From a virus (lineage: Duplodnaviria > Heunggongvirae > Uroviricota > Caudoviricetes), in IMG/VR virus record IMGVR_UViG_646564533_000009: DNA of 50,095 nucleotides; one strand, 5' to 3'. Positions within the stretch are counted from its first letter, which is position 1. Every line of letters begins with the position of its first letter. Below, piece after piece: positions 11,648-16,592 of this stretch. The position numbers and the translations under genes were made by a program. The notes below the pieces were generated by a model that had not been told where the DNA came from, made no database searches, and saw nothing but the letters and a program-made list of their open reading frames with translations.

Positions 11648-11883
11648 CATCCTCGTCCTTCAGGACGTGGATTCTTTTTCCGGATGCCGCGCCAGCGGCA
11701 TGTAGGGGCAGCTCACAAAACGGAAAAAATTGTACGCTAAGCCTCGCCAGGTGAACTGAATTCATTCCGATATGGGAATTCCCATATCGGGCGAAAACGG
11801 TTTGCTGTAACGGCAGAGTTAAGTAGGATTGCTGCGGGTGCTTGAGGCTATCTGCCTCGGGCATGAACACCAACGGCAGATAG

Positions 11884-11935
11884 ATAAAAGCCCCACCCGA
11901 CTATAAATCGAAGTGAGGCCCCTATATGCTCGTCA
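11884..11935 (-). ncRNA. sok: Predicted Sok-like antisense RNA
   Basis: Minus strand has a TTGACC -35-like element (plus 11964-11969) and a hairpin GCCUCAC…GUGGGGC followed by a U-run (ending near 11884), antisense to the mok/hok leader. Confidence 0.4.
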
Positions 11936-12138
11936 CATATAGATTGCCTCTTACGGACCGAAAGGTCAAGGAGAAGCAGGCTATGAAGCAGCAAAAGGCG
12001 ATGTTAATCGCCCTGATCGTCATCTGTTTAACCGTCATAGTGACGGCACTGGTAACGAGGAAAGACCTCTGCGAGGTACGAATCCGAACCGGCCAGACGG
12101 AGGTCGCTGTCTTCACAGCTTACGAACCTGAGGAGTAA
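11926..12138 (+). CDS. mok: Mok (in-frame N-terminal extension frame over hok)
   Basis: 70-codon frame sharing its stop with hok, as in chromosomal hok/mok loci. Confidence 0.6.
   Translation: MLVTYRLPLTDRKVKEKQAMKQQKAMLIALIVICLTVIVTALVTRKDLCEVRIRTGQTEVAVFTAYEPEE
11983..12138 (+). CDS. hok: Hok/Gef-family type I toxin
   Basis: 51-aa MKQQKAMLIALIVICLTVIVTALVTRKDLCEVRIRTGQTEVAVFTAYEPEE, very close to recalled Hok/Gef sequences. Confidence 0.9.
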   Translation: MKQQKAMLIALIVICLTVIVTALVTRKDLCEVRIRTGQTEVAVFTAYEPEE

Positions 12139-14022: not shown

Positions 14023-14388
14023 ATGACTGAACGGATAGAATTTGTTTTGCCTTACCCGCCGACGGTGAATACCTACTGGCGACGTCATGGCAATACGTAT
14101 TTCATCTCGGAAGCCGGAAAGCGTTATCGCCGTGATGTGGCGCTAATTGTTCGCCAGCAGCGGCTGAAATTAAACCTGTCCGGAAGGCTGGTGATAAAGA
14201 TTATTGCAGAGCCACCGGATAAGCGCCGTCGTGACCTGGACAATATCCTGAAAGCACCACTGGATGTGCTGACGCATGCCGGACTTCTCATAGACGACGA
14301 GCAGTTTGATGAAATCAATATTGTGCGCGGTCAGCTCGTTCCTGGTGGGCGGCTGGGGATAAAAATCACAGAACTGGAGTGCGCATGA
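14023..14388 (+). CDS. rusA: Holliday junction resolvase RusA
   Basis: 121-aa; alignable by eye with RusA (…PPTVNTYW…RRRDLDNILKAPLDVLTHAGLLIDDEQ…GGRLGIKITELE). Confidence 0.9.
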   Translation: MTERIEFVLPYPPTVNTYWRRHGNTYFISEAGKRYRRDVALIVRQQRLKLNLSGRLVIKIIAEPPDKRRRDLDNILKAPLDVLTHAGLLIDDEQFDEINIVRGQLVPGGRLGIKITELECA

Positions 14389-15074
14389 ATAACCACTATT
14401 TACAGTTTGTGCGTGAGCAGCTCATTATCGCCACCGCTGATTTGAGTGGGGCAACAAAAGGTCAGCTTGAAGCCTGGCAGGAGAATGCCATGTTCGATAC
14501 AGGGCGTTACAGGCGAAAAAAAATCCGGTACCGCGATGAAGTGACTGGAAAAATGATAACGCGGGATAATCCACCAATCCCGGGAAAGCAATCGCTGGCG
14601 AAGGTGACGTCAATTCCTCTGGTCAGTCCGGTTGAGTTTTCGACATCATCGTGGCGGCGGGCTGTTCTGTCTCTTGAAGAACATCATAAAGCCTGGTTGT
14701 TGTGGTGTTACAGCGGGAGTATTTGTTGGGAATATCAGATCGCGATAACACAGTGGGCGTGGAATGAATTTAATACTCAATCCGGTACCAGAAAAATTGC
14801 TGGGAAAACGCAGGAACGCCTGAAAAAATTAATCTGGCTGGCGGCGCAGGCAGTAAAAGCAGAACTTTTTGGTGGGGAAGGTTATGAATATCAGGAGCTG
14901 GCATTACTGGCGGGAGTGACAACTAAAAACTGGTCCAAAACATTTACTCGTCACTGGGTTGCAATGAAACACATTTTTCACCGACTGGATAGTGAGGCTT
15001 TATTATTTGTAATGAGAACACGTTCAAAACAAAAGGCGGCATTTTCAAAGCAAAGTGTTGCAAAAGTAGATTGA
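14379..15074 (+). CDS. Late-gene antiterminator Q-like protein
   Basis: 231-aa ORF directly after rusA and before a terminator-like hairpin and the tRNA cluster; position and size match QuuQ-type antiterminators. Assignment is by synteny. Confidence 0.6.
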   Translation: MRMNNHYLQFVREQLIIATADLSGATKGQLEAWQENAMFDTGRYRRKKIRYRDEVTGKMITRDNPPIPGKQSLAKVTSIPLVSPVEFSTSSWRRAVLSLEEHHKAWLLWCYSGSICWEYQIAITQWAWNEFNTQSGTRKIAGKTQERLKKLIWLAAQAVKAELFGGEGYEYQELALLAGVTTKNWSKTFTRHWVAMKHIFHRLDSEALLFVMRTRSKQKAAFSKQSVAKVD

Positions 15075-15137
15075 AAGGCATATATTTCATGCAAATCTGA
15101 TATTTTGCCGATTTTGTACGTGATGGCAAAAGCAAAC

Positions 15138-15166
15138 AAAACCCGCCCACAAGCGGGTTTTGTTGT
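15138..15166 (+). terminator. Terminator-like hairpin downstream of Q (tR'-like)
   Basis: acccgc-ccacaa-gcgggt stem-loop followed by a T-rich run. Confidence 0.45.
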
Positions 15167-15269
15167 GCCACTTATCTCGGATAGACATGGTGAATGCGCT
15201 GGTGGAGGAGATAAGGGTGATTTTTGTATGCTTGCAACATTGATTTCGTAACGTTATTATCCTGCGCCC

Positions 15270-15345
15270 GGCCCTTTAGCTCAGTGGTGAGAGCGAGCGA
15301 CTCATAATCGCCAGGTCGCTGGTTCAAATCCAGCAAGGGCCACCA
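15270..15345 (+). tRNA. ileZ: tRNA with CAU anticodon (ileZ-type tRNA-Ile2 / Met-like)
   Basis: Manual cloverleaf: acceptor ggccctt/aagggcc, anticodon loop cuCAUaa, T-loop ttcaaat, encoded CCA. Confidence 0.8.
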
Positions 15346-15346
15346 A

Positions 15347-15422
15347 CCGCCACTAGCCATCAGGAAAGAGCGTCAACCCTTTAAGTTGAGTGTGCGAGGT
15401 TCGAGTCCCCGGTGGTGGTCCA
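15347..15422 (+). tRNA. tRNA-like gene with atypical anticodon loop (argN position)
   Basis: Standard spacing: acceptor ccgccac/gtggtgg, U8A9, perfect anticodon stem tcaac/gttga, T-loop ttcgagt, encoded CCA. D-stem is weak and the anticodon loop reads ccuuuaa (C33; anticodon UUU by position), so identity is uncertain. Confidence 0.5.
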
Positions 15423-15435
15423 TTATCGGTATTCT

Positions 15436-15509
15436 GCGTTGTTAGCTCAGCAGGACAGAGCAATTGCCTTCTAAGCAATCGGTCACTGGTTCGACTCCAG
15501 TACAACGCG
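15436..15509 (+). tRNA. argO: tRNA-Arg (UCU anticodon)
   Basis: Manual cloverleaf: acceptor gcgttgt/acaacgc, D-arm gctc…gagc, anticodon loop cuUCUaa, T-loop ttcgact. Confidence 0.8.
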
Positions 15510-15681
15510 CTACACTTATTTTCCCGGCTCGCTTTTGCGGGCCTTTTTTGTATCTGCGCCACGCCCGGCGCATACCAACCACAGAGCCTTTCGGGGGGGA
15601 GCTTACGGAGTGGTCAGTGTGACTTTCTCTGTGGGCAGATCGCTCCCGGGCGTTGGCTCACCCACCCAAAGGAACGTCACG

Positions 15682-16113
15682 ATGTTTGGTATTTTTGGTA
15701 AAAAAAGCCCGCAGAGCGGCAACGGAAATTAAAAAGTTTGAAAAACGCGATCTGGCACAGGTGGTGATTAACGCCGCATACCTGGTGGCCTATGCAGATG
15801 GTGAATGTGAGGCTTCCTAGAAAGCGAAGATCGAACAGGTACTGCGTAATCAGCCTGCGCTGTCCGCGTTTACGTCAGAAATTAATGCGATTAGCGCAAC
15901 CATTATCGGTCAGCTGGATACGAACTTTAAAACTGGTCGTCGTGCGGCGTTACGTGAGATCGAGGATGTGAAACACGATACGCGTGAAGCGGAAGATGTG
16001 CTGGATGTGGCGGTGGCCATTGCGGAGGCAGACGGCGAAATTGAGCCGGAAGAGCGCAAGGTGCTGGAAGAGATTGCCGGTGTTCTGGGTCTTCGTCTGG
16101 AGAATTACCTGTG
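15682..16113 (+). pseudogene. TerB-like (tellurite-resistance TerB family) pseudogene
   Basis: ATG at 15682; frame is lost in an A7 tract (15700-15706) and the continuing frame has an in-frame TAG (…YADGECEAS*). Downstream residues (…EAEDVLDVAVAIAEADGEIEPEERKVLEEIAGVLGL…) look TerB-like. Confidence 0.55.
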
Positions 16114-16592
16114 ACGGTAAAACTGCGCCTGACTGTGGCTGCACTCCTGCTGTTTCTGGTGGTGATGGTGGATTTCACCAGCAGAATCATGTCGGTGCTG
16201 GCGGATGGGGGGCTGGTCTGCGGCATTATGGTATTGCTGTGGCCGGTGATAAAAAGAAACAGCCTGCATAATGCTTGATTTTTTTGTTTGCTGTTTATTA
16301 AAAACACTTCTGCATGGTGAATCCCCCTGTGCGGTGGGGCAATCAGCAAGAAGGAATATGGGGTAATCGCGGATTCAGGTGCTGATACTGAATTCACCGG
16401 GAGGCACCCGGCACCATGCTTTGCCACAAAAGTGTTATTTCTGTTTTTCTCAAACTATCATCGTTATCCCTTTATTTTCGGCTGCGCATGGCGCGGCCTT
16501 TTTTTTACGACCAGCCACTGGCAGATGGTCATCCTGTGATTTGATTCCGCTTCCGGCTTTTTAACTCTGTTCCTCTACACGGGAGAAATTCG

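Follow-up and report, generated by a model that had tools for sequence, protein, structure and literature searches.

A degenerating copy of a prophage tRNA-Lys(UUU)-like gene, probably a co-transcribed pseudo-tRNA, in the argN slot of a lambdoid tRNA cluster

We suggest that the tRNA-like gene of 76 nt at positions 15347..15422 (plus strand) of the DNA analyzed here, a viral sequence of 50,095 nucleotides (IMG/VR record IMGVR_UViG_646564533_000009; referred to below as the window), is a co-transcribed pseudo-tRNA in a decaying prophage, a degenerating copy of a prophage tRNA-Lys(UUU)-like gene; the probability that we attach to this reading is roughly 0.6. To judge from sequence comparisons, the parent gene is itself a relative of argN with a different anticodon, and the copy in the window has most likely lost its function as a tRNA. 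The initial annotation had offered a choice between a pseudo-tRNA, a decoy and a tRNA with unusual decoding, and this interpretation is supported in part: a pseudo-tRNA fits the window copy best, in view of its D-stem deletion, the lack of a report by the Rfam tRNA model and a prophage type that is reported as defective.

The gene, a Lys(UUU)-type allele, was defined from its sequence, from ARAGORN and from alignments to argN and to an intact Lys-type family, and it reads directly as CCGCCAC-UA-GCCA/UCAGGAAA/GAGC-G-UCAAC-CCUUUAA-GUUGA in the 5' half and GUGUG-CGAGG-UUCGAGU-CCCCG-GUGGUGG-U-CCA in the 3' half. The acceptor stem (15347-15353 with 15412-15418) comprises 7 bp, starts with a C1-G72 pair and includes one G3.U70 wobble (15349/15416); it is followed by a discriminator U (15419) and an encoded CCA (15420-15422). 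The T-loop, UUCGAGU, is canonical (UUCRANY type), and the stem of the same arm (15395-15411) is not fully paired, having an A51.C63 mismatch at 15397/15409. The first description of a standard acceptor, T-arm and CCA therefore stands for the acceptor and the CCA and fails for the T-stem. In E. coli, the discriminator of tRNA-Lys is A73, which contributes to recognition by LysRS; the window gene has U73. The D-arm (15356-15371) retains G18G19, and the weakness of its stem, noted at the outset, is evident from the apposition of GCCA and GAGC, which gives two continuous pairs (G10-C25 and C11-G24) and a third, C-G22, if A23 is bulged, short of the three to four continuous pairs of a standard D-stem. 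An anticodon stem of 5 bp (15373-15377 with 15385-15389) closes a loop of 7 nt, CCUUUAA (15378..15384), in which C32 is at 15378, C33 at 15379 and the anticodon UUU at 15380-15382, followed by A37 and A38; the loop sequence, C33 and UUU are those given in the initial annotation. Position 33 is U in almost all tRNAs; the gene thus departs from the canonical form at this base, and its UUU with A37 (15380-15383) is that of a tRNA-Lys(UUU). ARAGORN called three tRNA genes in the cluster region (15200-15560) and returned tRNA-Lys(ttt), not a canonical Arg tRNA, for the same interval, so that the manual fold stands.

The gene occupies the argN slot of a three-tRNA cluster, an assignment that is upheld by its position between ileZ and argO and by 84-87% identity to annotated argN genes. 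The cluster lies just downstream of the gene for the late-gene antiterminator Q (14385..15074, plus strand, within the open reading frame 14379..15074), as it does in Stx and other lambdoid phages; in loci that are identical across the tRNA cluster this gene is annotated as "phage late gene regulator Q" or "bacteriophage antitermination protein Q." A consensus scan found a sigma-70 promoter-like site, TTGCAA-17-TATTAT (15232..15260, plus strand), which stops 9 nt before the first tRNA, has hexamers that are kept in phage Evi, strain SCU-115 and phage 2851, and is a candidate promoter for a three-gene tRNA transcript. The first gene is a canonical ileZ-type tRNA with anticodon CAU (15270..15345, plus strand), called by ARAGORN and annotated as "tRNA-Ile" by PGAP in matching E. 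coli loci. The third is an argO-type tRNA-Arg(UCU) of canonical fold (15436..15512, plus strand; 15436-15510 in ARAGORN), also identified by alignment, with CTA at 15510-15512 where argO of Stx phages has CCA, so that no CCA is encoded. A hairpin resembling an intrinsic terminator, GGCTCGC-TTTT-GCGGGCC followed by a T run (15526..15551, plus strand; consensus scan), is a candidate end for the transcript. Because the gene sits between the promoter-like and the terminator-like elements, with 1 nt between the CCA of ileZ and 15347 and 13 nt between 15422 and argO, it is very likely that ileZ, the middle gene and argO share one transcript. Two open reading frames that overlap the interval, 15353..15562 (minus strand) and 15390..15701 (plus strand), run through tRNA genes and were not taken as genes.

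Many Stx phages have, upstream of stx2, an ileZ-argN-argO cluster to which the window cluster, 361 bases in all, shows 88-95% identity, and in an alignment with four Stx-phage clusters ileZ is unchanged and argO nearly so, while the middle gene has about a dozen differences from argN. Given its identity to annotated argN genes and, at 97%, to an annotated tRNA-Lys family, the middle gene is not a chance match. It shares with argN of phages such as 2851 and Stx2a_WGPS6 the slot after ileZ and downstream of Q, the acceptor sequences CCGCCAY/RTGGYGG, the D-loop AUCRGGA, the T-loop UUCGAGU, the discriminator U and the encoded CCA; its 3' end with U70 and the argO that follows are of the argN-cluster type, and the A51.C63 mismatch is common to the window gene and the argN allele of phage 2851. 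The differences from argN lie in the anticodon loop (CCUUUAA versus CUUCGAA for UCG or CUUCUAA for UCU), in pair 30-40 (A-U versus G-C), in pair 27-43 (U-A versus U.G) and in the D-stem, which is short of one base. In homology and synteny the gene corresponds to argN of the Stx phages; UUU stands in place of an Arg anticodon (NCG or YCU). In the literature searched we found nothing on ileZ, argN and argO.

When the 76-nt interval was searched against 5,426 complete E. coli genomes, 221 records held the window allele at an identity of at least 99%, 534 fell into a class with 95-99% identity, and more than 1,200 further copies were more distant, the sampled ones being mostly annotated as tRNA-Arg. 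The window allele is 100% identical in the 221 records and in about 15 IMG/VR contigs, without further decay; O145:H28 strains and E2865 are among its carriers, and strain SCU-115 has the intact allele. The class with 95-99% identity is a 77-nt gene whose anticodon loop is likewise CCUUUAA, whose D-stem (GCUC/GAGC) is intact and which is usually part of an Ile(CAU)-Lys(UUU)-Thr(UGU)-Gly(UCC) cluster after Q. Among isolated phages, Evi, PhiR47_1, vB_EcoM-606R7 and vB_EcoS-689R5 carry this intact C33 allele, and when one genome was scanned for each species, the Lys-type anticodon arm turned up in the E. coli and Shigella flexneri representatives only, which gives no sign of the family outside Escherichia/Shigella. 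The window gene and the 77-nt prophage tRNA-Lys (as in PhiR47_1 and vB_EcoM-606R7) agree in the C33/UUU loop, the anticodon stem, the variable loop and the T-arm; they differ in T12, which is missing from the window allele, in position 70 (U in the window allele, C in the 77-nt gene) and in the genes that come next (argO in the window, copies of thrU and glyT after the 77-nt gene).

The missing T12, a 1-nt deletion at 15357..15358 (plus strand) that turns the GCTC of the intact family into GC-C in the alignments, is what breaks the 4-bp D-stem. Comparison of the alleles indicates that the weak D-stem is an event separate from, and later than, the acquisition of UUU and C33: phage Evi has a Lys-type/argO junction with an intact D-stem. 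Since the 3' end of the gene and the gene downstream are of the argN-argO type, the window cluster is a recombinant of two cassette types, and the crossover is likely to have occurred in the shared T-arm/acceptor sequence. The T12 deletion is found also together with C70 in the Thr-Gly context (L027 and L084), and thus in both the argO and the Thr-Gly contexts.

Detectors of tRNA genes separate the window allele from its relatives. At the gathering threshold of 29 bits, the Rfam tRNA model (RF00005) reported just the two outer genes, ileZ at 72.5 bits and argO at 68.1 bits, and in a permissive search of 401 bases it left 15347-15422 unreported even at an E value of ≤10; the best match for the interval within the clan was tRNA-Sec (15.7 bits; E = 2.1). 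With the same model, argN(UCG) of phage 2851 scored 43.0 bits, the common intact C33 allele 44.4 bits and a relative with U33, described below, 53.2 bits. PGAP annotated the intact Lys-type allele as tRNA-Lys in 6/6 sampled loci and gave the window allele no annotation in 5/5; records in the style of DFAST/ARAGORN name the window allele tRNA-Lys, and the pipelines therefore disagree. Minimum free energy is no test of the cloverleaf here, the minima for the window allele, the intact allele and argN of phage 2851 all being non-cloverleaf structures, and for this reason we used the energy of an imposed cloverleaf, which was -19.6 kcal/mol for the intact allele and -12.4 to -12.7 kcal/mol for the window allele. 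The non-cloverleaf minimum of the window allele, -23.3 kcal/mol, is about 10.6 kcal/mol below its imposed cloverleaf. Loss of T12 thus accounts for the drop in both measures and puts the window allele beyond what structure-aware models detect.

The anticodon with C33 has a different standing. C33 was present in 15/15 distinct Lys-type alleles sampled, in which position 32 varies among C, A and U, and all other tRNAs called in the same 130 related loci had U33. UUU with C33 is the fixed state of a large prophage family and no private lesion of the window copy. In the literature searched we found no mention of C33 in an annotated tRNA-Lys. A U33 version, sought in IMG/VR with the pattern GCGTCAACNTTTTAAGTTGAG, gave no matches; a less biased sample, drawn through the 3' end of ileZ, contained one U33 relative (L142) with the canonical Lys loop CUUUUAU, a perfect T-stem and a compensated 4-69 pair, and a follow-up U33 pattern returned this relative and, within coding sequence, two matches that are due to chance (L241 and L242). 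In an alignment of 22 distinct alleles of the Arg(UCG), Arg(UCU) and Lys types, 95.9% of cells obeyed cloverleaf pairing, compared with at most 53% when the 3' partners were shifted, and changes on both sides occurred at pairs 7-66 (C-G/U-A), 27-43 (U-A/C-G) and 30-40 (A-U/G-C). These paired, two-sided changes imply that the scaffold evolved under tRNA-like constraint and that the slot once held real tRNAs.

Signs of decay accumulate in this slot, beside a nearly invariant ileZ. Diversity per site among IMG/VR contigs was 0.025 for the Lys-type gene and lower for its neighbors (ileZ, 0.004; Thr, 0.014; Gly, 0.013), a sign of relaxed constraint that shows even though the search pattern had fixed 22 of the bases of the Lys-type gene. 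In the first sample the T-arm was fixed by design, and its conservation there is uninformative. Two lesions that are expected to be harmful recur among the 113 Lys-type copies, a U8C allele (16 copies, with no PGAP annotation) and the T12 deletion (14 copies); rarer copies have mismatches in the D-stem or the anticodon stem, the whole anticodon arm is missing in three (L148, L195 and L202), and one (L097) has a large internal deletion. A survey of the second slot in 102 ileZ-linked contigs absent from the T-arm sample gave 63 argN(UCG) variants, 29 "class 3" elements, in which the anticodon arm is replaced and the T-loop is non-canonical while the acceptor stem and CCA are kept, and 3 argN/argO fusions. 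The slot has been seen to hold Arg(UCG), Arg(UCU), Lys(UUU), C33 forms, replaced anticodon arms and deletions, whereas ileZ hardly varies; within the tRNA cassette that follows Q in lambdoid phages, this second position is unusually prone to change.

The surroundings of the gene point in the same direction. The cluster is 100% identical to that of "PPompW" prophage records, in which the middle gene is annotated as tRNA-Lys, and PPompW prophages also match the first 25 kb of the window, with 72% covered at 97.8% identity. All PPompWs analyzed by Nakamura et al. had multiple gene inactivations and were apparently defective, and packaged PPompW DNA was undetected in that study (PMC8112680). Just downstream in the window, a TerB-family gene contains an in-frame stop (TAG), and the absence of an encoded CCA from argO is a further local lesion. 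Like tRNA pseudogenes in cryptic prophages, the window gene derives by a single lesion from a detectable tRNA gene and lies in a prophage type reported to be defective; unlike them, it lies between two intact tRNAs and has a complete acceptor/T-arm helix and CCA, and it is probably still transcribed and cut from its precursor.

These observations are compatible with the following history. Lambdoid E. coli phages would carry, after Q, a tRNA cassette whose second slot holds one scaffold with the anticodons UCG or UCU (argN) or UUU. One rare relative has the canonical Lys loop CUUUUAU, and the common E. coli Lys-type allele has C33 and the A51.C63 mismatch in the T-stem. Recombination in the shared T-arm/acceptor sequence may then have joined the Lys-type allele to an argN 3' end and argO, as in phage Evi, after which the window allele would have lost T12 and with it the D-stem. 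The acceptor/T-arm helix that remains could still guide cleavage by RNase P, but the broken D-arm, C33, U73 and the mismatch in the T-stem would make efficient folding, charging and decoding unlikely, and the likeliest fate of the RNA would be degradation by the quality control that the cell applies to defective tRNA.

Several points count against a pseudo-tRNA. The identity of the allele in 221 records could mean that it is retained, and the clonal spread of STEC lineages explains this identity equally well. The acceptor and anticodon stems, the 7-nt loop, the T-loop, G18G19 and CCA are all intact, and a bulged D-stem of 3 bp need not abolish the function of a tRNA. An invariant C33 beside a variable position 32 is not what decay alone would predict, and the intact C33 allele is carried by isolated phages.

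We regard it as improbable that the gene is instead a working, if unusual, tRNA-Lys(UUU) that is charged by LysRS through its UUU anticodon, reads AAA and AAG, and evades nucleases directed at tRNA-Lys, sustaining translation of the phage or its host during nuclease attack. The anticodon loop agrees with that of E. coli tRNA-Lys (which we take to be the lysT sequence) at 6/7 positions, A37-A38 included. AAA is a common codon, so that codon supply would not explain a phage-borne tRNA-Lys. Set against this are the broken D-stem of the window copy and its failure with the Rfam tRNA model, U73 in place of A73, and the A.C mismatch in the T-stem. The location in a PPompW-like prophage, of a type reported as defective (PMC8112680), argues in the same sense, as does the statement, quoted in PMC3664417, that changing U33 "markedly degrades translational efficiency." In favor of a working tRNA, a U33C mutant of yeast tRNA-Gln could be studied in vivo, and its phenotype was consistent with poor decoding (PMC3664417).

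Three nucleases, PARIS AriB, P2 OLD and PrrC, would be escaped by such a tRNA on account of its argN-derived scaffold. In E. coli tRNA-Lys, the AriB cut falls within U36AAUC|A41, and U39A abolishes cleavage (PMC12409363); the window gene reads U36AAGUU41, so that in this comparison of sequences positions 39-41 are GUU and not the UCA of the AriB site. P2 OLD has a preference for tRNAs in which 28-30 and 40-42 are paired CNG motifs, and it cleaves thrU fastest and tRNA-Lys(UUU) as well; the Thr(UGU) tRNA of lambdoid phage 21 counters this nuclease, and phage tRNA-Thr6 resists it partly through a changed 30-40 pair (PMC12445682). At these positions argN has CAG/CUG and the Lys-type gene CAA/UUG, both sides of pair 30-40 being changed, although a changed CNG pair alone gave no protection in the OLD study (PMC12445682). 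PrrC cuts immediately 3' of U33 (PMC2610378), exactly the base that is C in the Lys-type gene; we found no paper on the effect of C33 on PrrC, and in the literature cleavage by yeast gamma-toxin is unaffected by U33C, so that a change at position 33 is no automatic block to an anticodon nuclease. Beside the intact allele, the Thr and Gly genes agree with host thrU and glyT at every base (100% identity), AriB and OLD motifs included. The Ile-Lys-Thr-Gly cassette is thereby ruled out as a set of nuclease-resistant variants for Thr and Gly, and since these are host copies the intact cassette was not shaped as a resistant set, which weighs against an evading tRNA-Lys.

Nuclease-resistant phage tRNAs, such as the tRNA-Lys(UUU) of T5 against AriB and tRNA-Thr(UGU) against OLD, offer a close comparison: they bear the anticodon of the targeted host tRNA, as the window gene does, and, at the level of sequence, the window gene likewise differs from the host at 39-41 (AriB) and at pair 30-40 (OLD). 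Those tRNAs restore decoding, whereas the window gene has C33 and a broken D-arm, and the Thr neighbor in the intact cassette is the sensitive host thrU. A broader claim, which we think has a small chance of being correct, is that the C33 tRNA-Lys(UUU)-like family, found in about 1/7 of complete E. coli genomes, may be a selected anti-defense RNA and no relic. Its argN scaffold would carry a Lys anticodon with C33 at the scissile bond of PrrC, A30-U40 would remove the CNG motif of P2 OLD and the bases at 39-41 the site of PARIS AriB, and the product would be a cleavage-proof substitute for host tRNA-Lys or a non-cleavable decoy. By analogy with these phage tRNAs it is conceivable that the intact C33 family evades nucleases or acts as a decoy; were this true, the window allele would represent a family member that is weakened or dead.

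It is similarly doubtful that the window gene is a non-decoding RNA kept for its tRNA shape, as a processing signal or as a decoy for nucleases or modification enzymes that act on tRNA. RNase P recognizes its substrates mainly by the acceptor stem, T-arm and CCA, and these are the parts that are intact in the window allele, the damage being in the D-arm; even the rearranged "class 3" elements retain the acceptor stem and CCA. Given spacers of 1 nt and 13 nt, maturation of ileZ and argO would depend on cuts at the middle element: a cut by RNase P at the 5' end of this element, 1 nt past the CCA of ileZ, would free ileZ, and the 3' end of the element would help to free argO. Such a use of the acceptor/T-arm helix is a more modest possibility suggested by the arrangement of the genes. 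As for a decoy, overexpressed viral tRNAs might, in the view of the authors of PMC12409363, inhibit AriB by competition. Both versions are weakened by loci in which large parts of the element are lost (L097 and L148) or argN and argO are fused (L154) and the neighbors are apparently retained.

That the gene is an ordinary tRNA-Arg (argN) and the manual fold wrong can be practically dismissed, its argN slot and its identity to annotated argN genes notwithstanding: with UCAAC/GUUGA as the anticodon stem, the loop must be of 7 nt and positions 34-36 must be UUU, ARAGORN reads ttt, the loops of true argN alleles are different, and C35 is the main ArgRS identity base, so that a gene with U35 is not expected to be an Arg acceptor under known identity rules. 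The absence of an Arg anticodon, claimed in the initial annotation, is thereby sustained. The probability that remains falls outside the pseudo-tRNA, working tRNA-Lys, processing signal or decoy, and tRNA-Arg readings.

If the window gene is, as we favor, a pseudo-tRNA in a decaying prophage, then this feature in itself matters little. What deserves to be followed is the invariant C33 in a "tRNA-Lys" of hundreds of E. coli genomes and the changeable second slot in which it resides. Were the C33 form functional, it would be a natural elongator tRNA without U33, or a tRNA decoy, in a temperate phage.

Among the relatives of the window's middle tRNA gene (15347-15422), a probable pseudo-tRNA of the prophage Lys(UUU) type on an argN-like scaffold, the related IMG/VR locus L131 (401-560) carries an Arg(UCU) allele that shares the acceptor stem of the Lys-type gene and has a perfect T-stem. 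The cloverleaf of this allele lies 1.5 kcal/mol above its minimum-energy fold. The allele appears to be intermediate between the Lys-type gene and argN, and 3' of it lies a Thr pseudo-tRNA in an advanced state of decay. The only canonical U33 tRNA-Lys(UUU) found with the Lys-type/argN scaffold is located on the minus strand of a second related locus, L142 (4006-4082; loop CUUUUAU; 53.2 bits), where it adjoins an ileZ variant whose 31-39 pair is compensated and has a DNA methylase gene upstream.

The argN slot, the second position of the cassette, directly after ileZ, has other occupants. An element of approximately 80 nt, designated class 3 (CCGCCATTAGCTTATCAGGAAGAGCAGACGACACGATAACAGGGTTGTTGGTGCGGGGGCGGGTCCCCGATGGCGGTCCA), fills the slot in L147 and 28 more IMG/VR prophage loci (L141, L185, and L182 among them), a frequency of 29/102 ileZ-linked loci in IMG/VR; it retains an acceptor stem and CCA of the argN type, but the anticodon arm has been replaced and the T-loop is without TTCGA. 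A related element of 82 nt in L019 was called Val(aac) by ARAGORN. Sub-threshold Rfam matches to YrlA, of the Y RNA-like family, extend from ileZ into the second gene in L002 (1584-1642; 21.8 bits; E = 0.02) and in L006, which bears an intact Lys-type allele (2468-2526; 16.9 bits), and are probably a mere reflection of the tRNA-like module of YrlA.

In the window, the argO-type tRNA-Arg(UCU) is followed at 15510-15512 by CTA in place of the CCA that is encoded in Stx-phage argO; phage Evi displays the same state, and T-loop position 59 of this tRNA is C, not A. Just 3' of the tRNA cluster, a TerB-family open reading frame (15683-16114) contains an in-frame TAG at 15818-15820, and its counterpart in E. 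coli strain E2865, at the matching locus that is identical across the middle tRNA gene, is annotated by PGAP as a pseudogene with an "internal stop." Upstream of the cluster's own promoter-like site, a promoter-like site that overlaps the end of Q (TTGCAA-17-TATATT; 15058-15086) and a subsequent 13-bp hairpin (15135-15164) form a layout that resembles lambdoid pR'/tR'. The Q-tRNA region is bracketed by Rfam matches to the sok antitoxin RNA (11836-11985; 103.9 bits) and the sRNA STnc100 (16283-16455; 100.8 bits).

Elsewhere in the window, the arms of a 1,275-nt inverted repeat (24204-25478 and 42515-43789) are 99% complementary and 17 kb apart, and each contains an Rfam match to isrC (24288-24410 on the plus strand and 43583-43705 on the minus strand; 150.2 bits in both cases); the arms may represent an insertion-sequence pair or a duplicated prophage module. 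A direct repeat at 29051-29644, with three overlapping copies in a 162-nt register and 84 to 86% identity, suggests a 54-codon unit in tandem within a structural gene.

In the prophage Ile-Lys-Thr-Gly cassette, Thr(UGU) and Gly(UCC) (2580-2733 in L006, with about 100 further loci) match the chromosomal genes thrU and glyT at 100% identity, and tyrU is absent between them. This pair looks like a captured fragment of a host tRNA operon.
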